64,000 nt of DNA from Azolla caroliniana (taxonomy: Eukaryota > Plantae > Polypodiophyta). Of the stretch, positions 6,137 through 64,000 are shown in pieces. The notes below the pieces were generated by a model that had not been told where the DNA came from, searched no databases, and worked only from the letters and a program-made list of their open reading frames with translations. The stretch covers positions 28,334,001 through 28,398,000 of the forward strand of contig JBHGNT010000002.1 in assembly GCA_043228905.1 (NCBI GenBank), read 5' to 3'. The position numbers and the translations under genes were made by a program. Numbering within the stretch: position 1 is the first letter of the stretch; every line of letters begins with the position of its first letter.

Positions 6137-9100
6137 ATGGACAGAGGAATGGCAAGTTCATTTCTAACAGAAAAGCTCGACCGGAGCAACTATGCATCCT
6201 GGTCATATAAAATGCACCAATACCTGTTGGGGCATGGATATTGGATCTATGTGGAAGGAACCAACGAGGTAGCACCGAAGCCAGCACACAAAGACTTCCC
6301 GGCATGGGAACAATGAACGAGCCGAGTATTGTATTGCCTCGCGTTCGGTGTGCACGATCAGATGCTCGGCTACATGAAGGATGCAAAAACGCCAAAGGAG
6401 GCCTGAGAAAATCTTCGGAAGATTTTCGCCGCGAGTACCACAACCTGTAAGTTGCAGCTCCGAGAGGAGCTGAACAACATCCGACAAAGAGATATGTTGG
6501 TTACAGACTACACCACTAAGATAAAGGAGATTTGTGACGTGCTCGGGTCCATCAATGTGACGGTGGATGAAGACGAGATCTGTCTTGGTGGTCTTGCACA
6601 ACGGTACGGGCCAATCTGGATGGCAATTTGCACCTGGGAGAAATCACCGTCCTTCTTTGACTTACAATCAATGTTGATGGTCGAAGAAAACTACGCGAGT
6701 GGGTCGAGGACCACTCAATCGAACAACCGGATGCTATACACGAAGGCGGATCGACCCCGTGGGCATGGAGGACGAGGTGGGTCGGCACCCAATGGTGGCG
6801 GCCAGCAAGAGCAGAATCGAAGGCATAAACCCAGTGCCGGAAACCGGCAAGGAAAAGCTGGCATGGAGTGCTGGTATTGTGGCAAGAAAGGCCACAGAGA
6901 AAACGAGTGCTGGAAGAAGTGCGCCGATTCTGATAAATCCAGGTCCGGCAAAGCTCGCACTACGCAGTAGGATCAAAAGGATCCGGAACTGGGAAGACCA
7001 GAAAGGGGCCAGCCTTTGTGATGAAGCACAAGGCCAACTCGATGAAGATGACCACTTCTAGACAAGAGGAAGTCTGGTACGTTGATTCCGGAGCATCTAA
7101 TCATATGACGAGCCATGAAGAGTGGTTCTTGTTTTTAGAGAAACGGAACAACCGGGGATTGTCAAAACCGGAGACGACACCCCTCACCCAATTGTGTATG
7201 TCGAAGAAGTCCCTTTAAGCCATGTCAGACAAAAAGGGAAAGCTAATGAATGTATTACACGTTCCGACTATCACAAAGAACCTGGTATCGGTCAGACAAA
7301 TAGTCGACCAGAGAATGCAGGTGCGGTTTACACACCTTAGATGCTTCATCGAGGAAGAAGGTCGGATAATTGCGCAAGGGCATAGAGAAGGGAGGATGTT
7401 CATCCTCAACATTAATGACGTCGACACCGCTATGTTTGCCAAAGGACAAAAGATTGAATTGGACATTGATCTCTGGCATAAGCGGATCGGCCACGTCAAC
7501 TACCGTAGGCTTCAAGATCTGCAATCGAAATAAGTTGTGTTCGAATTGCCAAAGTTTAGTGGCCAGAAGGTACAAATATGTGAAGCCTGCCAACTCGGGA
7601 AGCAACACCGCCTTCCATTCCCCACCGAACGAAACTGGAGCCGTAACAAGTTCAATCTAATCTATTCGAATGTATGGGGACCGGCACAGAACGTTAGTCT
7701 TGGTAGGAGTCGATATTTTGTCTCCATCGACAACTACAGCCGGCACACATGGATCTACCTCATCGAGAAGAAAAGCGAAGTCTTGACTGTTTCCGAAAAC
7801 TTCAAAGCTTAGTCAAAAGGGAGACGAGAGGAAGATCAAGTGCCTGCAGTCGGATGGTGGAAAAGAATACTTTTCCGGCCAATTCAACAGTTCTCTGCAT
7901 TAGAATGGAATTCGGAGAGAATTGAGCTGCCGATACACACCGGAACAAAATGGTGTGGCCGAGAGAAAGAACCGATCGATTGTCGACGCGGCAAGGGCAA
8001 TGCTAGAGGAGAAGAGCATGCCCAAATTCTACTGGGTTGAAACACGTTTGGATATTCGGTAGCATAGCATATGTGCATGTACCGAATGAGAAGCAGAGGA
8101 AGTGGATCTGAAATCGGAGAAGTGCATACTCGTCGGCTACTCGCATGAACAGAAGGGGTATTAGTGTTATAACCCCCAAACTAAACAGGTCTGAGTAAGC
8201 CGAGATGTCGAGTTTGATGAATCGGCATCATGGTACTCTCTACCGACTCCAACTTCTGACCCGATTCCTAAAGATGAGGGTGGTGAGCCCGAAGAGGTCC
8301 AGGTAGAAGATGATGACTTCGGTACTCTAGATGAGAGTCCGATCTCATTCCGGCTAAGTGGGCTGAATGAGCGACTGAGTCGGGATGACCAATCGGATGA
8401 AGAATCAGCAAGTAGGGGAGACTCTGTTATGCTCTCCCCGCACAAGGAACTGAGGAGACGATTCACGCGCAAAGAGAAAGGGAGAAGAAGATGCCAGAAT
8501 ACGATACCGGCAGTGAAGGGTCGGATCGGAATGAATCGGACCCCGGAAAGGAAGAAGGTGGATCTTTAGAAAGGAAGTCTAAAACTGGCCAAGAAGGGCC
8601 TCAAACCGGGTAATGAAATGTTACATCGGTCAACCCGTCAAAAGAAAACCGTCATGAGGTACGGATACAATGAGTACATGGCGCATCTCTATGCGTACAT
8701 GACAAAGGTGGCGGAAGTGCGTGATCCGGAGAGCTACGCAGAAGCAACAAAGGACGCAAATTGGCATGTTGCTATGGAGGAAGAAATGCATGCACTTGAT
8801 GCCAACGACACATGGGACCTGGTTGACCCTCCCTGACAGTGTAAACCGATCGGTTGCAAATGGGTATATAAGGTGAAGTACAAGTACAATGCCGATGGTT
8901 CGGTCAACCGGTACAAGGCCCGGTCAGTGGCACAGGGATATGAACAGACCCACGGAATCGACTACGATGAGACCTTCGCTCCGGTAGTGAAGATGAAGAT
9001 GGTTCGTGTGGTACTGGTTGTTGTTGCGGCAAGAGGATGACATCTTCACCATATGGACATGAAGAATGCGTTTCTTCAAGGTGACCTTGAAGAATGGGTC

Positions 9101-15968: not shown

Positions 15969-18306
15969 CTCCCGCCAAGACTCATGTTCTGTGTTGGTCC
16001 CCATACATCTAAATGTATCAAGTCAAGCTTATTTCGGCTCCGATTACACTTGTTGGGTAAAGGAAGTCGGTTTCCCTAGCTGGTAGGCTACACAAATTTG
16101 GGCCTTTCGACCATTGAATTTTGGCAATCTGAACACAACTTGTTTCGATTGCAGGTCCTGAAGCCTTTGGTAGTTGACGTGGCCTATCCGCTTATGCCAC
16201 AAGTCAATATCCGACTCGACTTTTTGTCCTTTTGTGAACATGGTGGTACCTACGTCATTGGTGTCGAGGATGAACATCCTCCCATCTCTACGCCCTTGTG
16301 CAATACCTTGGCCTTCTTCCTCGATGAAGCACTTGAGATGCGTGAACCGGACTTGCATCCCCTGGTCGACGATCTCTCCGACCGACACCAGATTCTTCGT
16401 AATTGTCGCGACGTGTAACACATTCATTACCTTCTGTTTTTTCCCGACGTGGCTGAGGGGAACTTCACCGACATGTACGATCGGATGCGAAGTGTCGTAT
16501 CCTATTGCGACTACTCTCGATTATTCCGGATTTTCCAGATATGAGAACCACTCTTTATGGTTCGTCATATGGTTTGACGCTCCGGAGTCAACATACCACA
16601 CTTTGTCTGATTTCGGGGTGGTCTTCTTCATCGAGTTCGCTTCGTGTCTTGTCACGAAGGCTGCCCCCTATTCGACTTTTTAGGATACTTCGCCGTAGTG
16701 TGTCCGCTGCCGATTTCCTTGTTTGGTTCGTCTGGATCCGGATCCGGTTTTCTCCAAATCGGCGCGCTTCTTCCAAGACTCGCTCTCCTTGTGGCCCTTC
16801 TTGCCACAATACTAGCATTCCACGGTGTGTTTCCCTTGCTGGTTCTTGTCCCCTCCTCGATTTCCGCTGCTTTCAGAGGGTCCGGAATTGTTGTCGGCAT
16901 CACCACAATGCCTTCTTCCTTGTTCCCGTCAGCCGCCTCCATTGCGCGCCGACTCATCTCGTCCGCCACGACCACGTAGCCTATTTCCCTCCGTTTACAA
17001 GATCTTGATGTCGGCATGCATACTCGTCGACGCACCCGCGTGATTCTCCTCTACAAGGAGCCTTGACTGCGAGTTGAAAAACAATGACGTATTCTCCCTT
17101 GTACAAATAGCAATTCGGAATGCTCCGAACTTCGACGCCAATCCTCCGAGGTAGATCTGCACCATTTCGCCCTCTCAACGTTCACATCGATGGAGGCAAG
17201 GGAATCGCAGATATCCTTTATCTTGGTGGTGTAGCCAACCACCGTCATGTCGCGTTGACGCACATTGCCCAACTCCTGTCGGAGTTGGAGCTGCCTGGTT
17301 GTGGTGCTTGCTGAGAAAATCTTTCTCAGATTTCCCCAAGCATCCTTCGGCGTTCTTGCATCCCGAATGTAGCTCAAGAGTTGTTTTCTCATACAGGACG
17401 CGAAGCAGTAGAGATTTCTGCTCATCGACTGTTCCCAGGCCAGGAAGTCTCTATGTGTCGATTTGGGTGCTGCATCATTCGCTCCATCGACATAGCTCCA
17501 GTATCCATTTCCTAGAAGGTACGGGTGCATCTTGTACGACCAGGATGCGTAATTACTTCTATCGAGCTTCTTAGTTGGAAGCGAACTTGCCATACCTCTA
17601 TCCTTTTTTTTTCTTTCTGATCTTCACCAAGGTTAGGTTTTCTTTTTTTTGTTTCGAGCTGAAGTCGGTTGCAGAGGTTCTCAACCCTCACGCTCTGATA
17701 CCATGTGAAATGTTACATGTGGAAGCTATACGAAACACAGAATACCGATAGAGAAAATAGGTTTAATGGAGAGCTTAAGACACAATGTATGCGGGAGAGA
17801 CAGAGAGAGAATGAACACACAAAAAAACTAAAAAATAAATAATGCGTGAAACTTTATACATAGGATGTGCTCAGAGAGCACTTTTATACAAGTCCATACG
17901 GACTGACAGAAGTACTAACACGTACTTCAATGCTCATAACTGAGCTCCTACACTAACTCCCAAATATATTCACTCGCGGAATATCGGTTCAACGGCCTCC
18001 CGGTTTCTACACCGCTACGGCCTCCCGTTGCGCACCCGGTTTACGCACCCAATCTATGCACTTGTTTACGCACCCAATGTTGAGCTTGTATCTCAACACA
18101 ACGAAGGAGCTAAGATGGGCCTACTGACCAGACAAGCTGACCAAGGAGGACAAGGTGCGTAGAACTAGACGAGTCGTGGGAAGCAGAACCGGACCGAACG
18201 AGGAACGTGAACAAGGCGGGAGGACGTCAGAAGGAGCCGTAGGAAAGGACTGGCCACTACAGACACTGACACCACGATCCGACCTCAAGTTGAGCTTGAG
18301 GGGGAG

Positions 18307-22745: not shown

Positions 22746-22816
22746 TAAGTTGTTGTCCAATGTACAATGTGGAAATCTAGAACAAAGCCCATCCTCAAGT
22801 ACATACACTAAGATAC

Positions 22817-25496
22817 ATGGAGGAAGGAAGCATTAATATTAACATAGAACATGGGAGCTTAGAAGATGTATATAGAGAGTTATCCTTCGAAGCCAACCTT
22901 TCCTCTTTAAGCTCTCAAGACAAGATTCCCCCTAATTGTGTCGTGGATGTTGAAAATTGTGACATTGTAGTTGGATCATCAAATATCAACAATATCCCTC
23001 TAAATATAGTTGATGTAACCAAGAAATCATATAAATTCAACTCAATCAAGCAAAAGAAGGGCAACTATGTGAAGAAACAAAAGTCATATTCACAACCTAA
23101 TCCTTATCATGCACATGATGATAAATTATATAGTACACATTCCGGCCCTTTGCCAAATATAGGCTCTAAGCCAAGCAATTATGATCTTAATAGTGGTGAT
23201 AATGAGGGATATGCTATCTTTAGGACAAAAGCACCATTGCTAGAGCGTCGCTTTTCTCGCCTTAATTCAAATCGTCGTGGTCGTCGTGTGGAAGCTGATG
23301 GCATTCGTGCTTCATCCTCATGCCCATTTGAACCCAATGCGGAGAGGTACTTTAGTGCACTTCAAGGACCAGAACTAGATGTATTGAAGGTAATATCCAT
23401 CCTTTCATGTAATCCCTCATGTTTTTTCAAAATGGGACTAATCATACCTAGGATGTTTGTACACCTTACTGACAACATAAAGCACAAATCCTAGTATCGA
23501 GTACATGTACAAGTTTCAATTCCAAACTATGCGGGGAAAGAAGTCTTCATTAAGCATTGAAATATTTGTTTAGACAACCACACACCTTGCAAGACACATG
23601 TGATATCATCTTGGAAAAAACATAGTGTTATCACAATTTGAGATATATTAGATTGCTCTAAGTAGGAAGCATGTAGATTCAACGAAAGTCCTTGTAAGAA
23701 GTGTCATGCATAATTGCATTCATATACTTATGCATTGGGGGATGGCTAATTTAGGTTCAAGTAGATGTTACCAAACCTTGTTGTATACCTTATTTACTAG
23801 AAGTATCTTAGTGAGGCTATTGTAGAACAATTGAGGATCTGGCCCTCACTAATTTGGAGTTGTTAATTTTAAAGTTACAAATCTTTTATCGAAAAAACAA
23901 CTTCGAAAGTTTTGGGGATTGTACACATCTTTTCTATTAGTCGAGAGAAAATCACTTGAAAATATTCCGAATGGTCAGAAGAGCTCCAAGATGGATGGAG
24001 GTCAACATTGTCCTTATGTAGAGATTCAGATTAGAATCGTTATAGACATGACTAGTAGGCATGGCATGGCATGGCTAGATTGAGATATTATTATAAACGT
24101 AGACATACAAAGCTCATGCTTCTTTCTGGTGATCTACAAACATGATGTTAGGAATCGGAGGATACATTGCTCTCGGTTGAGCAGACATGGCCATTCTTAT
24201 TGCGCTTCCCGATCGGATGCTTCGGTATCTGCCTCGGCCTCGCTAGCCAGTCCATCTTGTGGAAATCTCTTTCGACCACGTCGACAATGCTCTTCATGCA
24301 CATCCCGAGCTTCATCCATCTGACTCTATGGTGCTTAGCACTCCTCACATTCATATCAGTATTCTCGACATACGCACTCAAATGTCTCTTCTACTTCGAA
24401 GCTGTGCGGCGCGAGTTCTATCATCCGGTGCGAACGAATTTCTTCTTCGCGCCATGGATAGCATGCATGTTTCTGGCATTGGGGGCTCCTCCTCATGCCA
24501 TGGCTACAACCATACATAGCTACTTGTGGATTACAGTCATCACACCCGTCTTCGTACTGGAGCTCAAGATGTATGGACAATGGCTCTCGGGCGGTGAGGG
24601 CCGTCTCTCCGAGGTTGTGAACCCCTCGTCACAATTATCGCTCTTGGCAAATTTTGTGGGTGCTCTCCTGGCTGCTAGTGTGGATTGGATAGAGGTAGCC
24701 ACATTCTTCTGGGCTGTTGGCCTAGCACATTATGTGGTCTTGTTCGTTACTCTATACCAAAGGCTACCGACTGCCGCTGTGATTCCTAAGGATCTTCACC
24801 CAGTTTTCTTCTTATTTGTTGCTGCCCCGAGCTCAGCAAGTGTCGCGTGGGCGAAAATCGTTGGAGATTTTGACTTAGTGTCAAGAATTACCTACTTCAT
24901 TGGCTTGTTCCTTTACTTATCTCTGGTAAAATCTCTTTGTTACATATAGATATGTATGCATGTATGTGGATTTGTCTAGTTATTTCATTATATCCAAAAC
25001 CAAAACAAGTTTTGTTCTATTTGTAGGTCGTCCGAATCAACTTCTTTCGAGGCTTCAGGTAGATCTCAAAGCTTGGTTAAAGCTACATACATATAGTATA
25101 CTCTTACTTATTTAAGACAAGCATGTGAGGGAGATTAGTTGAGTTGGACCTCTGATTATTTGTTTCTTATACACCAAAATGAAATGGTTTTTCTCCAGGT
25201 TCTCTATCACGTGGTGGGCATATACTAGTCCAATGACTTCAGCTGCAATAGCCACAATCCAATACTCCCTCAAAGTTAAACATCATTTCACACAATTCAT
25301 GGCTTTAGTGCTCGCTTGCATATCATCCCTTACAGTGCTCTTGATTTGCATTCTAACCATTCTCCACATCTTTTACTGGCGTGATATGTTTCCTAATGAT
25401 GTAGCCATTGCAATCACTAATGAGCGCCGACAAAAGAAGTGGTCAGAGTTTGATCCAGAATTAAATACCACATCAGTATCTCTTGAAGAGGCTTGA
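22817..25496 (+). CDS. SLAH: S-type anion channel, SLAC1/SLAH family; exons 22817-23389, 24152-24925, 25027-25058, 25199-25496 (558 aa)
   Basis: All introns are GT..AG and phases join in frame (573+774+32+298=1677 nt). Family motifs: RYFSALQGPELD, WPFLLRFPIGCFGICLGL, VRREFYHPVRTNFFFAPW, YGQWLSGG, LFVTLYQRLP, LHPVFFLFVAAPS, VRINFFRGF, FPNDVAIAIT. Confidence 0.93.
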
Positions 25497-28720: not shown

Positions 28721-29901
28721 ATGCTTGTCTGTAACATCAATCTAGTCACTTTTTGCCAATTTAGTTGATTTCAAACCTGGTCAATTCCCAGGTGAACCCT
28801 AACACACTTTTCCCTCCCTTCTAGAAAGACCATGTGTTGATTATCATGGCTTCAATTGATTCCAACAGTTTGACCAACTACAAATATCTTATATTTGACC
28901 AGTACCGCCACACTTTTACTTTGGATTATAAAGATAAACAAGGCTGCTCATTATTAGAGGATTACATATTTGAAGTCTTGTTCAGATGGAGCTCCTAACA
29001 AGGCAAAGTGGACATCCCTATCTTAATGCATGGATTTGTGCTTTTTTATGTGGGGATGAGGCCTACAACTAACGAACTTGGTCCATTCTAAAATGCCTCC
29101 CTACATATGACTCAATGCGAGTGATTTCCAAATTTCCAAGATCAAAAAATTACACCAAACTCAAAATTTGTGCGTTTTGGACATTGATCTAATCACGAAT
29201 GAAATTTATGGAATCTCAAACGTTTCTCTAATAAAATTCGTGAAGAGTTGTTGGGTTTTCTATCTTTCTCGAGGCCAAGATTCAAAGTGATCTCCGAAAC
29301 ATCGAGTGCAAAAAATAGATAATATTTTAAACTAGACTTTTTCCCAAACAATCATGCTCTGTTTCTTTGGGAACAATCAATCCAACATGGTGTCAAAATT
29401 TGAGCATGGTGTAGATTCAGAGTGAGGTCAAGTGTTTGACACGATCAAGAATGATCGAACCTTTGACCGATCAAACATGATCAATCATCCAAATAATAGT
29501 GGTTCAAGTGTGAGACTAGGAATTGATTGATTAATGAGTGCGGTAAGTATCAAAGCTTGTTCGATTGGCGCATGGAATGAGTGTGGTATGAAGGAAGTCT
29601 CGACACTTGGAAGGATGGATGGAACATGTTCCGTGGAAAAGGAGGAGGAGAGGAGGGTGTTGAACTAGTCTTGGTACATAAAGAAGAAGTGCAAAGACTT
29701 GGGACTCTACATACATACTGATACACCATAGTATGTATGTGTGTATGTATAGTGAGACTAGGCCCTCCTCCTTCGGTCTTTTCTTCTATCTTTGGTTGAA
29801 TTTGGAATGAAATGCGCTTAATTATTCAGCTTTTTGGATTCCTTCGCCCTGACCAAGTATATGCCATATCCATCTCTGTTTTTCAGCATCGCTTCTGAAG
29901 C

Positions 29902-31269
29902 ATGCATATGGTGGACACAAACCCTCCTGCAGGGCTTACAAAACATGGCCTTATGTTGCAACCTATTATAGATACAAACCCTAACCCTAATACGAAAAAT
30001 AGCCCTAGTATACAACACCACCTCCCAAACCCTAATTATAACCATACCCTCACAAACCCTATGTACGATCCTCATCCTAACACTGACCCTAACCTTCACC
30101 CAAATCCAAAGCTTGAGTATTATAATCCTAATCCTAAGACTAACCTTGATCCAAACCCTAACTACAATCTTAATCTTAATCCTGTCCCTAGCCCTAACCC
30201 TACACACCGTCACATATCATCGGTATCAAAAGCCACACCATTATCACTATCAATGAGTCCCCGTGATAATTTTTCGGCGTCAATATGCCGGTCTCTCGGC
30301 CCTCATGGCAAAGTGCTTCTTAAACATTCTGACCGCTTCGACACAATGTCCGCCTTAGACATCATGCGTGAATCGGTGACCTTAATCCGTGCAGATTCGA
30401 CCATCCACATGTCCATCATGGCCATCTTGATCTTCCCTTCCTCCATTTTTCTCCTCTCTCGTGCATCGCTACACTTAATGGTAATGTCTAGCCATTTGTT
30501 GTCACCCATTTCTCGAGCCATGGGTTGGGCTAGCTTTCTCTATGGCTCCCCCATGGGATCTTTATATGAGTCGCTTTCCCATCCCATTGTTTACTATGCA
30601 TTGGCCGCCCCTATTCTCTTCACCATCATGTTATTGGCAAAAGCAAGTATAGCCTATTCCATTGCTTACACATATTCGGAAAAGCCCCATTCACTTGTCA
30701 TTGCCATCACGACCGGTGCTCGGGCATGGAAACGTGCCTTTTCGACATGCTTATGGAGTTCCTTACTTCTTTTCGGATGTGGTTCTATCGCCTCAATCAT
30801 TTTCTCGTCCATAATCAGCCTTCTACATGAGTTGAGATTCTCCAGTGACCTTATACTCCTTACGAAGCTCGCCTTGGGATTATTTTACTCGGTCATATTT
30901 GTGCACATCGTGGTAGTTGGAAATCTTGCGAGCACCATCTCGATCCTAGACGAACGATCAAGTTTCATCGCGCTTGTGGAGTCTTTCCACATGATTAAAG
31001 GGAAAATTCACGTTGCGTTGTCATTGTTTTTTGTTTCAACAATTACCACAAGTATGGTAGAAAGCCTATATGAATATAGAGTAATTGGTATCCCACCAAG
31101 TAACTATGCTATAACCACAGGTTCAAGAATGTGGGAAGGGCCATTGCTCATGTTCATGTACTCATTTTTGTTGCTTCTCGATGTCGTCATGGGGACTATA
31201 CTCTATTTTGTGTGTAGATCGGAGAATGTTCAACTCTTTAGTCCCCAAGTCGACTCATTTGATGTTTGA
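29902..31269 (+). CDS. Intronless multi-pass membrane protein, At1g26650/At1g69430-like, with Asn-Pro-rich N-terminus
   Basis: 455-aa ORF; MSALDIMRESVTLIR, IKGKIHVAL and GSRMWEGPLLMFMYSFLLLLD..YFVCR match the family as recalled; several hydrophobic segments. Confidence 0.85.
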   Translation: MHMVDTNPPAGLTKHGLMLQPIIDTNPNPNTKNSPSIQHHLPNPNYNHTLTNPMYDPHPNTDPNLHPNPKLEYYNPNPKTNLDPNPNYNLNLNPVPSPNPTHRHISSVSKATPLSLSMSPRDNFSASICRSLGPHGKVLLKHSDRFDTMSALDIMRESVTLIRADSTIHMSIMAILIFPSSIFLLSRASLHLMVMSSHLLSPISRAMGWASFLYGSPMGSLYESLSHPIVYYALAAPILFTIMLLAKASIAYSIAYTYSEKPHSLVIAITTGARAWKRAFSTCLWSSLLLFGCGSIASIIFSSIISLLHELRFSSDLILLTKLALGLFYSVIFVHIVVVGNLASTISILDERSSFIALVESFHMIKGKIHVALSLFFVSTITTSMVESLYEYRVIGIPPSNYAITTGSRMWEGPLLMFMYSFLLLLDVVMGTILYFVCRSENVQLFSPQVDSFDV

Positions 31270-44507: not shown

Positions 44508-47500
44508 ATGGCAACGGTTAGCACTCAAGAATACCAATCCGTTTTCTCGGAGCTCCAATGCTTAAAAGAAATGTTTGTAGCACTAGAACAAGAAAATCAA
44601 CGTCTAATGGGGGATTTTCAACAAGTAGCTCTAGAAAAACAACAACACGGGGAGCTGATGTTACGTGTGCAACAACTTGAAGTGACTATTGTGTCATTAC
44701 AACAACTCTAAGGATCAACCACTCAAGGGACTCCCAAAGAACCCAAGATCGGTCTTCCTATTAAACTTGATGGGACCCGATCACAGTTTAGAGGATTTCT
44801 TAATCAGGTATGTGTAATGATTCAAATGCATCCTTCTTGATATCCCACCGATGCATAACGAGTGGGGCTAGTAGGCACACTACTAAGTGGCACGGCTTTA
44901 GCATGATTCGCCCCCTTGTTAGAAAAAAAATCTCCTTTGTTAAATAATTTTGAAGAGTTTATTAGCGAGTTTAAAGCCTATTTTGGAGATACCGAATGCG
45001 TTAGGACGGGAATCAACAAAATCTGAAGATTGCGTCAAGGTGATTGGTCGGCCTTAGCTTATCTTGCGTATTTCCGTCTTCTCACCACTGATATTCCTTG
45101 GAATGACCAAGCATTAATGGAACAATTTTGTTATGACCTACGTAATGATGTCAAGGATTTACTCTTGACCTTCCCTGAAGAACCAAAGTCATTGACTGAA
45201 GCAATCAGTCGCGCGGTACGATGCAATAACCGCCTTTTTGAAAGACGTTGAGAACGTCAGTTCCAAATGCCGAGGACAAGATTGGACCCACTTACGCTTC
45301 AGTTATAGCAAAACCTTTCCCAAGGGAGTCATTTAATGCGTCTCCAACAAATACTCCCACTCCAATGGACATCGACACCACACGTTGTCGCGGACCACTA
45401 TCTGAAGAGGAAAAACAACGACACCAAGCAAATCGATTATGTCTTTATTGCGGTGGATCGGGGCATATTGCAGTGAACTGTCCCCATCGGCTGAGAATAC
45501 AGGTAAATCAAATATCCACTAGTACTAATAGTACTAAACATGAGTCTATTTCTCTAGGCGTGTCTGATAGTCCTAATAGCCCAAGCCTTTCAAACAAATT
45601 TGAAATCCTTAGTCAACTAGAAGAAGAGTTAAACGATTAAGTCCAACCAAAATAGGAGCCATTTGGTTGGACAACTCTAGATCTGTGCAGCCCATTAGTG
45701 GTTCCATTCCCTTTAAGCAAGTTAGCAATGTCTTCCTAGCTCAAGTAACAATTAATATTAAAAGTATCTCTCCAATACATGTCTTAGCAGTCCTAGATTT
45801 CGGAGCTAATTCTTGCTTCATGGATAAGAATTTTGCCCAAGCTCATCAAATATCCCTAAGAAAACTCCCTTGCCTAGCCTCTGTAGTAGTCATTGATAGT
45901 CGCCCCATTGCTTCCGGAAAAATCGTAGAAGAGTCAGAGCCAATTAGTGTTGTCCTAGATAATTTGACATGTGTAGTATCATTCAATATAATTAGTAGTC
46001 TAGAACATCCCATTGTTTTGGGGTTACCATGGTTCAAGTTACACAATCTAGACATAGATTGGAGAACAAGAGAAATCTGGTATTGACAACCTCGAGAAGC
46101 TGCTCATAAGGTTTCAACCATTTCGCTACATCAACTGCGTAAAGAAGGAGGCTAGGAATCAATGTTTGTATTCGCAGTATCAATAAGACCTTCCAACACC
46201 ACTAAAGAGGAATCCATAGTTAAACTTCTAGAGAAGTACCGTCATTATGCCGACGTGTTTGATAAGGTACAAACCAATACTCTTCCTCACCGTCAACCGT
46301 ATGATTGTTCCATTGATTTACAACCAGGAAAAGAGCCACCATGGGGACCAAACTACAACTTATAACCAACCGAGCTAGAAGTCCTTCAAGCCTACATAGA
46401 GGAGAATTTGGCGAACGGGTTCATTCGACATTCGAAATCTCCAACCGGCGCACCCATTTTCTTTGTCAAGAAAAAGGGTGGATCACTTCGTCTCGTTGTA
46501 GATTGTCGCGGCTTAAATAAGGACACCATCAGGAATAGGTATGCACTTCCCCTTATCTCGAGTCTTTTAGAATAGGTTAATGGTGCAAAATTCTTCACAA
46601 AGATCGACTTACGATGTGCATATAACCTCGTACAGATCCGACGGGGAGATGAATGGAAAACCGCTTTTCACACCCGATACAGGCACTTAGAGTATATGGT
46701 TATGCCATTCGGTCTTACCAATGCGCCAACAGTCTTCCAGCACATGGCAAATGATATATTCCGAGATCTCTTGGATATTTATTTGATCATCTATTTGGAT
46801 GATCTACTAGTTTATTCGAAGACTCAAGAAGAGCATGATTCTCATGTACTATTAGTACTAAAACGGCTTAAAGAACATGGTCTTTATGCAAAACTGGAAA
46901 AATGTAGTTTTGACTACAATCAGGTGGAATTTCTGGGCTATGTTATCTCCTCGGAAGGCATCTCCATGGATCTCGCTAAGGTCAAAACGGTGGTAGAGTG
47001 GCAAACTCCCTATTCGTTGCGAGATGTGCAATGTTTTTTAGGCTTCGCAAATTTCTACCGCAAGTTTATACAGGACTACTCAAAGCTTATTTTGCCTCTC
47101 ACACAACTAACCAAGAAGGGGCGGTCGTTCGTTTGGTCTAAGGAAGCGGACACGACTTTTGTAAGTCTTAAGAAAGCATTTACATAAGCTCCTATTCTAG
47201 CTCATATTGATCCGAAAAAATAGTTCATCATGGAGGCAAACGCGTCGGATTTCGCCCTTGGTAGCATTCTGTCACAACAAGGTGATGATGAAAAACTACA
47301 TCTTGTGGCTTTCCTCTTGTCGCAAGTTTGACGCCGCCAAAATCAACTACAAGATACATGACAAGGAGCTATTAGCAATAGTGGAATCTTTTGCACAATG
47401 GAGGCATTTTTTAGAGGGATCTTCTCATCAAATCACTGTACTTAGTGATCACAAAAACCTTGCCTATTTCCAGAATGCTTGTGTATTAAATCGACGACAA

Positions 47501-49680
47501 GCTCAGTGGGCCCAATTCCTCACTCGTTTCGACTTCAAAATTACACATTGTCCTGGGAAGTAGCAAGGGAAGGCAGATGCATTATCATGGTGCTCGTATT
47601 TAGCACCTCGTCCTGGTGATCCAACATTCGATAATCAAAAGCAAGTCATCCTGGGACCAGCACGACTACAAGCAACGTGGGTTTGTGACACTCCCTTGGA
47701 TTCCCGTATTATTGAGACCATACGTGAAGACTTGAAGACAAATGCTTTTGCTCAAGCCATTTTAATGCAAATTGATTCCTCGCGGCAACCTATTCAAAAT
47801 CACAACAACCAGGTATGGACTATCGACAATTCAAATGTCATGATGGATTACTATTCTTTAAGAAACTCTTGTATGTTCCCAATGGTTCTTGTTGCCTTCG
47901 AGTAGTCCAAAATTTTCAGGACACATATACAACTGGACATTTTGGTAATACTAAAACATTGAATTTAGTACAACGATCATTTTGGTGGCCTCATATGCGA
48001 TGATTTGTCGAAGACTATGTTCAGACATGTGATACATGTTGTAGAGCAAAGATGCCAAGGCATCATACCTATGGTGTTATTCCTTGGGGTAGGACTAGCC
48101 CTAACACATGGTGTCCCTGTAAGACACTTCACCAAAGGGTGGTGCTAGTGGGGTAGGCGTAGATCGTGATACAAACGTATTCCTAACCGGCTACTAACCA
48201 ACGTGGTTAAGGATCGTAATACATGTGTAAGATAGATTCTATTAAGCACAAAACAGTAATTAACTAAAGCTTCAAAGATTAAACAAGATGTAGAACAACA
48301 ACACTTTCATTAATAGACTGCTATCTGATTAGAATCTAACTGGGTCCTTTTATAGGTCACCGGCTTTGGGTATGAACCGGTGCCAATTGACAACCAGCCA
48401 CGAACCGGTCCGGATCCGGATCGACATACCGATTCCGGGTTCGTCCGTTCGCTTCTCAAAATATATCATAATTATAGGTAACAACTCCTGGTTCTAAAAT
48501 AATTATCCATTTCCCATTCTGGACTTTATCCGGCTTTTAAGTCTTTGCCAGGCTTTTAAGTCTTTGCCGGTCAACATATGGTTTATTGGAACCATTGCCA
48601 CTTCCAAGCAAACCGTGGCAGTCCATTTCTCTAGATCTTATCACAGATCTTCCAGTTTCAAAGGGATTCGATGCGATCTTAACAATAGTAGATCGATATA
48701 CTAAGATGGCACATTTCTTGCCTTGTACTAAGGCAATCGCTAGTGAAGAAATCGCTGAAGTTGTCATCGTGAGGTATTTCGGCACCATGGCCTCCCGGAT
48801 AGTATCATCAACGACCGTGGACCTCAATTCGTCTCGAAATTCTGGAAGCATCTCTTCAAAATGCTTAAGGTCAGTTGTAATCTCTCATCCGGTTATCACC
48901 CTCAAACAGACGAACAAGCAGAACGAACAAATCAAATGTTGGAACAATATCTTTGGTGTTTTTTAAGCTATCAACAAGATGATTGGGCGGATGGGGGCAG
49001 ATATTCTCCACTTTGCCGAATTTGTTTACAATAACTCTATCCACTCATCGACTAGGGTTACACCATTTAATGCTTATACAAGCTACCATCCTTGATGGTG
49101 TGTGCTCGAAACTCTAGAGTTACCCACAAATCCTCGTGCAGAGGATCATTTGGAGCGGCTATGCAAGATACAAGCAGATCTATCTACCCATTTACATCAA
49201 GCTCAACAAACACAGAAGGCTTATGGGGATTGTCATCGACTTCCATCCTGTTTTGACATTGGAAATCAGGTATGGCTATTACGACAACATATCAAGACTA
49301 CTCGACCATGCGATAAATTGGATTATCGACGATTAGGTCCTTTTTGTATTATCGAAAAAATTAATGATGTCACTTTTCGTCTTGATCTACCTCCACAACT
49401 ACGGATACATCCGTTTTTTCATAGTTCTCTCCTTGAACCCGATCAAGGCAACACTATCCCGAATTGTATTACACCACCTCCACCCTCAATCGAGCTTGAA
49501 GCTGGACCAGAGTACGAAGTTGTTGCCATCCTCAATTCCAAGATTGTTCGCAACAAGCTCTACTATTTGGTCGATTGGTTAGGCTATAGTCCAAGAGAGC
49601 GTACTTGGGAACCAGTCGAGAATATAGTAAATGCTTGAGCTCTTATTGAGGACTTCCATCGGCAATATCCCGACAAGCCA
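44508..49680 (+). pseudogene. Chromovirus gag-pol with chromodomain, disrupted
   Basis: [90 protein letters not shown]. Confidence 0.93.
48075..48576 (-). mobile_element. Solo LTR (502 bp) in chromovirus integrase
   Basis: TGTT..AACA ends, perfect TSD tatgg, splits RHHTYG|LLEPLP; cctataaaagg on the minus strand. Confidence 0.88.
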
Positions 49681-53619: not shown

Positions 53620-55899
53620 TGTTGAGAGTCGAAATCAACTTCCCATAATAGTAATAGGTTTCACACTAGCTCATGGTCATACTAGGCTAGTTTTGTAAAT
53701 AGTGAAAAGGGCACTTGCCCTAGTTTAGTTGGTATTTAAACCAACCCCTTGTAACTTAGTTATTGTTGGAAGTATTTTTGGTTAATGTAATATACAATCT
53801 TTTATCTCTGTCTTAAGCTCTCTCTCTCTCTCTCTTTGTCTTACGTGCATTACACCACTAGCTCCATTTATTTACATGGTATCAGAGTGTGTGGTTGCTT
53901 AATTGAATCTATTAAACTGTGTTGTGGTACACGCCGACGATCAACAGAGAAGAAATCAACATAATGAACACTCAGATGGGAAGCGCTCTTCCTACTGAGA
54001 AGCTTAACAGAACGAACTTTGCATCTTGGGAATGCAAGATGCATCAATACCTTGTCAGACAAGGTTACTGGAGTTACATTGAAGGAGCTCACGAAACTCA
54101 ACCCAACCCAACACACGCCGACTATCCTGTTTGGGAGCAAGCCGCAAGCCGCGTGTTGTATTGCCTTGCATCATGCGTTCATGATCATATGCTTGGCTAT
54201 ATTCGAGATTTGAAAACACTAAAAGAAGCTTGGAGAAACCTCAAGAAGATTTTTGCGGCTAACACAGCTTCACGAAAGCTCTAACTTCAATAGGAGCTAA
54301 ACAACATGCAATAGAAGGACATGTTGATCACATGTTATACCTTAAAGATCAAGGAGTTGTGCGATGCCCTCGATTCGATTAATGTCATAATCGACGATGA
54401 CAAGATGGTGCAAATATGCCTCGGAGGCTTAGCACCCCGATTTGGCTCGATTAGATCGGCCATCCTTGCAAGGGAGAACCCTCCTTCATTTTTCGATCTC
54501 CAATCAATATTGTTGGTTGAGGAAAGTCACTCCTGACAAAGGAGTAACGCACCAGAGGGTCATATGCTCTACTCCCAGTCAGATGATAGAAGAAATTTCG
54601 GCCGTAAATAGAGGTCGATTCAAACAAGCTGTAATGGTCGACAGACTCGAGAGCGTAACTCCCACCAATGGCAAGCGGACAGGAACGGTCCCAGAGAGTT
54701 CGGAAGAAGGGGGAGTCATCATGCTGGACCAAGCAATCGTAATACCCCGATCGACTGCGAGTACTGTGGAAAACATGGCCACTACGAAGAGGAGTGTCAG
54801 AAAAAGGTATGAGACTCAGCTTCAACTAGCCGACAAATCATGAATTACGCATCGAATTCCGACTATGACAATCGTTACGAAATGTTTATAAATTACGCCA
54901 CAAATTCCAACTACGGAGATTGTGGCGGAATGTTCGTAATGAGGCATGAAGCACACTCAATGTCAGCACAGGCCTCAACGAGTGCCTCCGCCTCAAATAA
55001 CGTATGGTTTGTTGACTTGGGAGCATCCAACCACATGACGTCTCATGAAGATTGGTTTCGGGAATTACGAAAACCTGAACGACCCGGATATGTCGAGACC
55101 GGCGATGACACGACTCATCCAATACAACATATCGGGAACGTCCCATTCGGAAACAATGGCAAACAAACCTATCTCAAGAACGCAATGCATGTCCCTACCA
55201 TCACGAAAAACTTGGTCTCGGTCGGCCAGATTGTCGAACAAGGAATGCAGGTACGATTCAACAATGATGGATGTTTTATCGAAAGAGGAGATCAAGTCGT
55301 AGCTGACGACCGTTGTGAAGGCCGTATGTTTGTCCTCGAATCGAATGAGGTAAAAACAACTTGGAAGGAGTCGACCTTTTATGCCAACAGCCTTAGGGGT
55401 TGACAAGCTCGGGCAATTCACATCAGACCTTGGTCTCACAACATCCACATTGCCGAGCTTGAGGGGGAGTATGACATGTACGTAACACAGAACGATACAC
55501 CACATGCAACGATACGTGAGTATGCAACACGTAGTTAATCAAACCGAGCACGAAGCCGAAAAGCCGAACAATCCAATTTGAGGATTACAAACGCCAGAAG
55601 CTGAATTCCGAAAACCAAACTGAAACAACCTTTCGACAGATGGAAGTTGTGTTCGAAGGGGCGTGTTGAGAGTCGAACTCAACTTCCCATAATAGTAATA
55701 GGTTTCACACTAGCTCATGGTCATACCAGGCTAGTTTTTTAAATAGTAGAAAGGGCACTTGCCCTAGTTTAGTTGGTATTTAAACCAACCCCTTGTAACT
55801 TAGTTGATGTTGGAAGTATTTTTGGTTAATGTAATATACGGACTTTTATCTCTCTCTTAAGCTCTCTCTCTCTCTCTCTCTCTCTGTTTGTCTTATGTG

Positions 55900-59911: not shown

Positions 59912-61892
59912 GTTACTAGTAGTAGGTAGTAATAGTAGTACATACTTCAAAGGGACAACATTGTAATTTGTAACAATGCTCACATGGTACATGTGGATGC
60001 CCAAGTAGCTTGCTACTTGGAGTTATTTGATACTTTCTAAAGATGCATGCCTATTACTCCCACCGTTAGCCTAAGAAACGTTCCTTATGTGGCACACTTC
60101 CCTTTCATCTCCACTCAATTGTTAGTTTGGCTCACCATCCCAATGATTTCTTTACGGGGTAGAATTGTTATTTACAAAAAAATATACAGGGGTGGGTGGA
60201 TTTAATCTTAATTACCCTTGCGTTTCCATTTAAGAAATTTCATCCAAGATTTTATTGAAGGAAAAAACACTAAAATACCCCTAAAGGTTTTTCTTTAATC
60301 CCCCCCTCAAATTACGCATTTTTCTTGGTTATTTCTATGAGTTAGTTCCCTTGGCAAAGTGCCAAGAGAGCAACAATATATACATATGGTGATTTCGTCC
60401 ACCTCCCCTTACTTTTAGTAATGGTGAGGAGGGCAGTGTGGGAGATAATGAGAACCCAAGGGCACTTTATTTCGGGAAAATAAATTATAAGGGAAAGCGC
60501 AGGAGTATTTCCGAGATTTTTAACTTTCATCTATTCGACGGGTAAGTATGTATGTATGTAATGGGAACAAACCAAACGAACGGATTTGCAAAACAATATC
60601 CCCGAATTAATCCATAGCCTCTTTTTCTCTCTAGATTTATTTGAGAAATGAGACGGAAAAAATCGACGGTACAAAATTCTCCTATTTTTGCTTGCTACTA
60701 GTTTTCACTCCCTATACACACATACACATTACAGTCTACAGATACTCTTATTCAGATCCTGGTAGAAATCTATGGTTTCATCCGGTTGATCATTCCAGAA
60801 AGTTATTGTGTGCTTCTTCGGTGAAGGTTCACCTCACCTTAAGCCATTCTCCATTTCTCGATAATTCCCTGATTTTCTTTATTTTCCCAAATGACCCTGA
60901 GTTTTTGCTTTTTAACCCATGCCCTCGGGCACCCCAAAACACAGAAATATTGTTTATGCTACTGTTGTAAGCAATTATTTATGCAAGCTCTCTCATTTCC
61001 ACAGGTATTCAGGAAATCTGTGGGCATCTGTTCATCATAGAAGTCAGGTGAAAGGTGTGATTGAAATCCACAACAAACCCATGGTAGTTTTTTCAATATT
61101 GCAATATGGCCCTCCAGGAAATAACCGAAATTCATGGGCGTTTGTCGATCACAGCAGTTAAATGAAAGAAAGCATGGTTGAGATCAGCAGCTCGCCCATC
61201 ATAATTTTATCGATATTGCAATATTCCCCTCCTTGAGTATTGGATTCAGGTATCTTCTTTCATGGTCCTTTTCAATGCATGATGAATGTTGTAGCACTTG
61301 TCTAAAGGCATTTAGTTTTTAGGATTTTCCATTTTGAGAAGGCATATGATATCTGTGGAATACGCTAGTTTCCGCTTGGATCCTGTGAATGAAGTCCATT
61401 GCTAAAACAATATGTGGATATAACAGTGGGAACGTATAGATATTTTCTTAGCTTACATCAGAGTTTGGTATCATTTTGGCATGGCCTATAAATGATTTAT
61501 TTTTTTCTTTTTTGTGTCTAGGTATAGGAAGCATATGTCTGGCTGCACAGAGCAGTTTTGTCTAATTTGAGATCAGTAAAATTTAGTCGGCCCAAGGGAC
61601 TTCGTATGTGGCCATGATTATGAGACACACCTTTGATTGTTGAACAGGGGCTTTTCTAGGAGTTATCAAATGGCTCCAGACAAAGAGAAAAATCCTGAGC
61701 CTTAATCTCTGAACACGTCATGGTACATGGTCCACACCAACTCAGTTCCCCGATAGGTGACGTTTTTGTCCCCAAATGGAGCCACAGATGTTGTCACATG
61801 TACATTGATCTTTTAATGTGTAACGAAGGCTTAAGATTGTGGTATTATATAGACATCCAAGTTTCCAAGGTTCTTGGAAATACAACTCACAA

Positions 61893-64000
61893 ATGGCATC
61901 AAATGTCTCTTCTCAAGTAGTGCTCTTATGGAGAAAATACTTTACGGATCCTTCGCAATGGGTGGATCACAAAAGGATCAAGGTTAGTATATTGGTGTTT
62001 TGCCTAATTATTTTCTTGCTTGTTTTAGATATAGAAAAGACTTATGTTTTGGCAGACTAGCGCAAGATGCCCAGATTTTATACATAAAATTACAAAGGAT
62101 TCTTTATGGATTCATAGTGAGAAAAATCCTTTTTGGGTTTTTGAAGAGATGAAAAAGAGAGTCGAGACAAACAAAGAAGAACTTGGCGAAAAAGAGAGAA
62201 ACAATCGGAATGACTATGATAATAAGGAGGGTATTGCTTATGTAGAATTGCTTAAATCTTGTGCTAGAAGGAAGGACCTTGTAAAAGGTACTAGTATACA
62301 TGATGATATTCTTGAGAAAGGATTGCTCGTAAAGTTTCCTTATTTAGGAAGCACTTTGGTGAATATGTATGCGAAATGTGGCGCTTTGGCAAAAGCACAA
62401 CATGTACATGATGAGCTTCTTGTTCACAATGCAGTCTCTTGGAATTCTCTTATTGCGGGGTATGCTCAACAAGGGCAAGGTAAAGATGCATTAAAGTGTT
62501 ATGAATTCATGGAAAGAGATGGTTATTCTCCGGACGTCATCACCTTCACGTGTGTATTGAAAGCATGTGGTAGTACACGAGCAATAGAGAAAGGCAAGCA
62601 AATTCATAAGGAGATTGTTAGCAAAGGACTCTTGATAAAAGACCCGCTTCTTGGCACTGCTTTGGTTGATATGTATGCAAAATGTGGCGATATGGGGAAA
62701 GCATCACAAGTATTTGATGAACTTCTTGTTCAAGATGTTGTCTCTTGGAATGCGTTGATTGCAGGATATGCCCAACAAGGACAAGGTGAAGAGGCATTAA
62801 CTAGTTTTGAAAGGATGGAAAGTACTGGTGTTTCTCCAAATGTGATCACATTCACTTGCATCTTGAAGGCATGTGGCATTACAGGAGCGATAGAGAAGGG
62901 CAAACAAATCCATGATGAGATTGTCAATAAAGGGCTGCTCAAAAAAGATAACGTTCTCAGAACTGCTTTAGTAGATATGTATGCAAAATGTGGCGATCTA
63001 GGAAAAGCACGGCAGTTGTTTGATGAACTTCTTATTCGAGATGTGGTCTCTTGGAATACCCTAATTGCAGGATATGCACAGCAAGGGCAAGCTGAATGTG
63101 CATTACAGTCGTACGAGTGTATGCTTAAAGATGGACTTTCTCCTGATGCCATCACATTCAATTGCATATTGAAAGCATGTGGCTGCATAAAGGCACTGGA
63201 TAAAGGGAAAAAAATACATGAAGAGATTAAAAGCATGGGATTGCTAGAGAAGCATACAATCCTGGGCAATGCTTTGGTAGATATGTATGCGAAATGTGGT
63301 GAGCTTATAAAAGCCCAAGAGGTTTTTGATGAGCTTCGTGTACAAGATGTAGTCTCTTGGAATGCATTGATATCAGGGTATGTACAACTGGGGCAGTGTG
63401 ATGAAGCGTTGAACTGTTTTCAACGAATGCAACGTGATAATATGTCTCCAAATGTGATCACCTTCATTTGCATCCTTAAGGCCTGTGGTAGTATAGGAGC
63501 AATTAATGTAGGAAAGGAAATTCATAATGACATTGTTCATACAAGATTGCTGGAAAAAGATACTGTCCTGGGAACTGCTCTGGTGGATATGTATGCCAAG
63601 TGTGGTGAGCCAGGAGAAGCATATGAAGTATTCAAGGTACTTCCTATGCGTGATATTGTTACATGGTCAGCACTCATCACTGGGTATGGCCAACGAGGCT
63701 TGGGTCAGGAAGCTTTAGATTGCTTTGATAGGATGCGAAACGAGGGCCTTTCTGCTGATGCAGTCACCTTCGTTTCCATGTTAAAGGCATGTGGAAATGA
63801 AGGAGACATTGGCAAAGGCAAACAAATCCATCACATCATTATCAGTGAGGGACTATTGAAGGAGGATGCTGTTTTGGGTAACGCTTTGGTAGATATGTAT
63901 GCCAAGTGTGGTGAACTACAAAGAGCACAACAAGTGTTTGAGGAGCTTCCTGCACGGGGTGTAGTGTCATGGAATGCTTTAATTGCAGGGTATGTCCAGC
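61893..64000 (+). CDS. PLS-class pentatricopeptide repeat protein with N-terminal OSB/PDF-like motif; exons ~61893-61982 and 62056->64000; cut off by the window end
   Basis: Frame appears open from 62041 to the end. LV(D/N)MYAKCG recurs at 62365, 62671, 62977, 63283, 63589 and 63895 (306-nt period) with VSWN.LI.GY and ITF.C.LKAC motifs. GT..AG intron 61983-62055 is phase 0. Start codon uncertain. Confidence 0.88.

Follow-up and report, generated by a model that had tools for sequence, protein, structure and literature searches.

The gene described here lies at the end of a 64,000-nt stretch of the Azolla caroliniana genome (hereafter, the window), and Table 1 gives its features. The original prediction was that an intron hides the fusion of an OSB-type PDF single-stranded DNA (ssDNA)-binding motif with a PLS-class PPR array. 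The 73-nt intron has an AT content of 71% and is inserted in phase 0, between donor AAG/gttagt (61982/61983) and acceptor tggcag/ACT (62055/62056), and the only frame remaining open across the join is that beginning at ATG 61893. An exact 73-nt skip with GT..AG ends was found in contigs from relatives in three of four runs (X13, X14 and X4); these runs, from two coded organisms and two studies, are not recorded as RNA, and the relatives are about 93-96% identical to this gene in this region. A contig from the fourth run begins at the boundary of the same intron, and contigs beginning at 62054 were observed in three of the four runs. The skip-bearing runs behave like cDNA, in that four more GT..AG introns, located further upstream, are missing from their contigs as well. 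The in-frame join proposed at 61982/62056 was therefore borne out by transcript-type contigs.

Table 1. Features of the PDF-PPR gene, in window coordinates
Feature	Position	Strand	Basis
Multi-exon 5' leader, likely untranslated	60799..61892	+	GT..AG joints in contigs of relatives
Leader introns	60827-61004, 61048-61157, 61250-61521, 61723-61852 (alternative)	+	Contigs of relatives
Coding exon 1, starting with ATG 61893 (-3 A, +4 G): 11 residues, then first half of PDF	61893..61982	+	
73-nt phase-0 GT-AG intron	61983..62055	+	
OSB-type PDF motif, 50 aa, intron-split	61926..62148	+	OSB-only profile
Charged linker, 28 aa	62149..62232	+	
PLS-class PPR array, exact 102-aa period, six triplets within the window	62230..64000	+	

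We infer the presence of the leader intron at 61250, because extra sequence inserted in the relatives obscures its joint. No upstream in-frame methionine was present in any of the 16 splice combinations of the leader. The relatives have frameshifting indels at six leader sites, with none of those listed lying within 61893-62330. ATG 61893, 11 residues ahead of the PDF motif, is therefore the likely start codon. Translation from ATG 62149 is disfavoured, because the exon 5' of this codon is conserved and spliced in frame. Elsewhere in the window, a gene for a SLAC1/SLAH-type anion channel occupies positions 22781-24946 (+), with a frame at 24152-24946 matching Pfam SLAC1 (7e-34) and a possible N-terminal exon at 22781-23491. 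Broken pieces of LTR retrotransposons lie at 6407-6967, 16047-17623, 45613-49635 and 54813-55400, and comprise copia-type gag and pre-integrase sequences and a chromodomain-bearing gypsy-type RT/SH3 element. An open frame of 456 codons, rich in Pro, Asn and His and with no Pfam match, extends from 29899 to 31266 (+).

Read beyond the window, the gene (locus L031) encodes a protein of 1,243 aa consisting of the PDF motif, the 28-aa linker, 10 L1-S1-P1 triplets with a spacing of exactly 102 aa, and an L2-S2-E1-E2 end, the P motif of the tenth triplet being P2. With its 10 triplets, P2-L2-S2 end and Pfam PPR matches, this protein belongs to the PLS class, and the PDF-linker-PLS architecture of the spliced product withstood testing; at least six repeats of PLS type had been claimed, and the window alone holds six triplets. 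The C-terminal 157 aa are 46% identical, through the E region, to the PDF-PLS-E-DYW protein P0056 of Diphasiastrum, although the Pfam E_motif model gave no score at 1e-5 for this protein. The proposed reading beyond position 64000 for E/DYW domains revealed the former only: E1 and E2 are present, but the frame stops immediately after them, at window-equivalent position 65695, and no remnant of a DYW deaminase (HxE, CxxC) was detected downstream in any of the three frames. As this member has no DYW domain, a deaminase would be needed in trans. No match to an OB-fold or SSB domain was found in the coding frames, and only 11 residues precede the PDF motif in the splice model, with no evident transit peptide.

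The assignment of the N-terminal domain was assessed with an OSB-only HMM built from 24 PDF repeats in 12 SSB+PDF proteins. The spliced peptide scored 64.7 bits, with 21.5 bits for exon 1 alone and 34.9 bits for exon 2 alone, versus a best score of 13.3 bits for 2,000 shuffled peptides (1,963 scored), and the proposed similarity to OSB PDF motifs is upheld. Of the two half scores, that of exon 1 is less affected by bias, because some of the 12 proteins of the profile were retrieved with the exon-2 half as the query. This half matched 44 proteins at E ≤0.001 among 1.84 billion representatives, nine with a Pfam SSB domain, two with PPR arrays and nearly all of the others with tandem PDF motifs; a word-based homologue search with the same half gave no match. 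Six proteins (P0005, P0014, P0015, P0019, P0034 and P0043) carry 4-11 tandem PDF repeats with no SSB or PPR match, which suggests that there are PDF-array proteins outside the OSB family. The fused PDF of this gene retains W5, F9, P12, W15, D17, the PDF core, LW and PxWV, whereas R19 and K22 are missing when it is aligned to the profile. Retention of the hallmarks W5, F9, P12, K22, PDF, LW and PxW is 84-97% among 75 fern domains, versus 80-97% among 100 from Diphasiastrum. There is no Pfam family model for the PDF motif, no sequence in the PDB matched the PDF alignment, and the Atlas yielded no usable lead. The AlphaFold model of a Pteridium PDF (pLDDT 86.8) is compact, with a helix, three short strands and a second helix; fold searches with this model yielded no clear structural counterpart, with E values of at least 4.3 (Foldseek) and a best Z of 2.9 (VIA-align), which does not imply a new fold.

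This gene is one of many in the same genome. In a survey of this genome (G000; 523 Mb, including the 149,725-bp plastome), the exon-2 half gave 87 matches, mostly in frames of 500-1,460 aa, and four further queries added few. Of the 99 loci retrieved, 95 were examined after the removal of four duplicate copies, and 70 were resolved as PDF+PPR genes. In 65 of these, a phase-0 GT-AG intron interrupts the PDF at the identical boundary, and a PLS array follows the PDF (a split PDF was called when it scored at least 8 bits above the reverse-complement control); the other five are intronless. Of the remaining loci, 17 have a PPR array without a resolvable first half of the PDF, and eight have no counted array. 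Ten loci have DYW-like tails, mostly degenerate. The single OSB gene found in this genome has two PDFs, both split at the same boundary as the fused PDFs. Two further PDF genes contain this intron: L041 (G000:C1:6312937-6315646) has no SSB match, and L051 (G000:C13:13443956-13444292) is followed by a frame without a PPR array. The PDF loci account for 26 of the 150 best C-terminal relatives (from 4,939 first-look candidates), and among 20 close relatives outside the locus list, 18 have no PDF and two have broken remnants. The genome contains DYW genes of both the HSE and HAE types and cox1 copies interrupted by in-frame stops, a combination that we read as that of a hyper-editing fern. A link to U-to-C editing was not supported: none of the 20 top-scoring DYW genes examined, HAE/KP-like genes included, carries a PDF, and the fused DYW domains are of the HSE type.

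The original prediction had proposed searching other seed-free plants for the co-occurrence of PDF and PPR, and the fusion was indeed recovered from the ferns Adiantum and Pteridium and the lycophyte Diphasiastrum, and also from several species of Sphagnum, although these proteins are not named as such. A profile search gave 565 matches; among the 120 listed, PPR domains are present in 51, of which 47 are Diphasiastrum proteins, and in none of the entries from seed plants. Many of the Diphasiastrum fusion proteins have two or three tandem PDFs. P0050, P0056 and eight of the 47 Diphasiastrum clusters have HSE[KR], CxxC and a DYW or NYW end, and, judged by these motifs, such ends are of the C-to-U type. 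Of the metagenome loci (80 in all), 43 combine the PDF match with an in-frame PPR array, and for 67 the nearest of 13 named reference proteins was from Sphagnum, with best identities of 59-72%. The moss-like loci are mostly intronless, with L253-255 and L259 retaining an intron at the same site.

In a tree based on 54 columns, 30 fused PDFs from fern, clubmoss and moss, including that of this gene, were separated from all OSBs (92/87, unstarred), and a second, intronless set of fern PDFs fell elsewhere. The simplest reading, a tentative one, would be a single ancient capture of the PDF, plus possibly a second, in which a PLS-E-DYW gene acquired the pair of PDF exons of an OSB gene ahead of the divergence between mosses and vascular plants. 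The tree of C-terminal sequences, too weak to tell a single origin from several (it was quickly built, with mis-cut rows and no PDF-less moss or clubmoss PPRs), places PDF-less genes among PDF-bearing ones, a pattern that would be expected, faulty C-terminal extractions aside, if the PDF were a passenger, fixed once by chance 5' of a PPR gene, multiplied with the expansion of the arrays and now disappearing. The broken remnants in two of the 20 close paralogues and the 17 loci without a resolvable first half point in the same direction. However, pooled dN/dS, an estimate favouring the PDF by discovery bias (the members were found through this motif) and obtained with synonymous sites near saturation, was lower for the PDF than for a PLS triplet, both among the closest fern pairs (40 pairs; 0.14 versus 0.33) and among 20 moss-like loci (0.12 versus 0.27). 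These values indicate that the fused PDF is under purifying selection. They also speak against the passenger explanation, which we regard as unlikely, as do the retention of the hallmarks in fern domains, that of the PDF itself in moss, clubmoss and fern, and the two or three tandem copies in many Diphasiastrum proteins.

The N-termini of the fern proteins are short: 60 of the 70 fern members have no more than 25 residues between the first in-frame methionine and the PDF, although upstream coding exons were modelled for the present gene only, and organellar import is therefore not evident. The PDF might accordingly be seen as a tryptophan-rich mini-domain that takes the place of the transit peptide in the fern clade and whose docking partner would be an OSB protein, the import machinery or a DYW donor. 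The pattern of residue conservation is compatible with such a module, as the basic DNR/KHK positions have drifted in ferns (K31 retained in 16%, K33 in 55% and R19 in 72%), with conservation of the aromatic core. However, PDF-less close paralogues (18 of 20 loci) appear, by eye, to be equally short of a presequence, and most of the moss-like and Diphasiastrum members have both a leader of 40-140 aa, presequence-like by eye, and a PDF. We regard an interaction or import role as unlikely. A very large PLS-E clade (L140-L159 and most of the PDF loci) appears to begin at the first L motif or at the PDF, with no recognizable transit peptide, raising the question of how its members enter organelles.

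We favour, with a confidence that we would put at about even, the explanation that the PLS-E PPR protein with an N-terminal PDF is an organellar guide for C-to-U RNA editing, in which the PDF would provide a single-strand nucleic-acid grip without sequence specificity. Through the PPR code, the array would recognize some 30 nt, and a DYW deaminase would be recruited in trans. PPR proteins bind from 5' to 3' in their N-to-C direction, and the PDF would therefore lie 5' of the editing site, where it could hold upstream RNA or exposed nucleoid ssDNA, such as the displaced strand of an R-loop, and thereby lengthen the dwell on nascent transcripts. The PDF would be helpful yet dispensable, which would account for its frequent loss in fern paralogues. 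The editing-guide explanation is favoured by the splice, homology, E-region, DYW, intron, tree and dN/dS results given above, and by further observations. The PDF is the ssDNA-binding part of OSB1 (PMC6963530 and PMC4166229). Water ferns have many PLS and few DYW proteins, which suggests editing in trans, with deaminases recruited by PLS-E proteins that lack DYW (PMC12548569). Among the members that could be parsed (17), the P/S positions show canonical code pairs in 160 of 174 cases. The binding of RNA by the fused PDF is a guess, given that AtOSB1 and AtOSB2 are reported to prefer ssDNA to dsDNA or RNA (PMC4166229, PMC6963530 and PMC6451138).

The best sites for the 17 members in 140 kb of plastome and a 60-kb cox1-bearing contig revealed no excess of C at the position expected to be edited, four bases after S2, and no code-matching site with a C there stood out; T was found at this position for up to nine of the 17 members in the 60-kb stretch under two settings (shuffled share 0.27-0.32). 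A 493-kb contig (G000:C27) contains five equal-scoring copies of cox1 with in-frame stops, and is possibly a repeat-rich or misassembled mitogenome. One plastome site matched the 20 P and S motifs of the protein at 19 of 20 positions (G000:C1503:39128-39157, +), a score equalled by seven of 1,500 motif-order shuffles under each of two schemes. The frame antisense to this site is presumably psaB. The site is not an editing site, because an A occupies the position where the edited base would lie, and it would be better accommodated if the fusions were sequence-specific organellar ssDNA binders, in which the array reads ssDNA, the PDF provides affinity, particular sites are marked for the control of recombination, for replication or for transcription, and the DYW forms could deaminate DNA. 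The PPR code is also valid on ssDNA, with a lower affinity (PMC13041630). However, the match is one of about 100 protein-by-setting tests, with self-chosen code weights and unscored L motifs, and no other member gave a comparable match; E and DYW:PG-type ends are, moreover, the usual anatomy of RNA editing. We consider the match a weak lead, and sequence-specific ssDNA binding unlikely. When the genome was searched for exact occurrences of the PPR-code pattern, 64 were obtained, mostly in one nuclear repeat, versus 3,514 for the reversed control, and this search was therefore rejected; a stretch similar to the plastome site, at G000:C3:4376113, matches this pattern exactly.

The PDF+PPR fusion is real, expressed, conserved and, it seems, undescribed, and the multiple genes that carry it define a class of seed-free-plant PPR proteins of the editing type. 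The original statement that no functional description of this architecture was known agrees with the full texts searched, in which none was found. A 2026 kingdom-wide survey of editing-factor fusions does not mention OSB or PDF in its accessible portion, and the available text of a 2026 OSB survey, which kept solely proteins with both a PDF and an OB-fold (PMC13393729), does not mention PPR. The fusion thus exposes a blind spot, to which the lack of a Pfam model, the dual requirement of the OSB survey and the annotation of fern PPRs from open frames (PMC6786969, in part) all contribute. As a wider proposal, which we consider tentative and somewhat doubtful, organellar DNA and RNA editing would be physically coupled in seed-free plants by PPR proteins of an ancient class that has expanded repeatedly, either because an ssDNA-binding domain keeps editing at the nucleoid, or by sequence-specific reading, in some members, of organellar ssDNA, with deamination in the forms bearing a DYW domain. 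It is still being asked how, in hyper-editing ferns and lycophytes, thousands of editing factors locate their targets ahead of translation (PMC10226603), and the MORF proteins that assist editing in seed plants are missing from these plants (PMC13386178). The presence of a DNA-maintenance module on dozens of editing-type PPR proteins per genome renders a coupling between nucleoid and editing directly testable.

The fusion shares with OSB1-4/PTAC9 the hallmarks of the 50-aa PDF and, in this genome, the same intron inside the motif, but it has no OB-fold or SSB domain, it carries its PDF at the N-terminus, ahead of a PPR array, and it is present in at least 70 copies versus the one OSB gene found. 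It resembles the PLS-E editing factors (motif classes of Cheng et al.) in its L1-S1-P1 triplets, P2-L2-S2-E1-E2 end, canonical code residues and lack of DYW, but differs from them in its folded N-terminal PDF, the conserved intron 5' of the array and the lack of an evident transit peptide. Finally, like RRM-PPR proteins such as PPR4 and the RRM-E, RRM-DYW and MORF-P fusions (PMC13386178), it combines a general nucleic-acid-binding module with a PPR tract; these fusions are mostly P-class or single cases with RNA-binding domains, whereas the PDF fusion places a DNA-maintenance module on PLS editing-type proteins, with dozens of members per genome.
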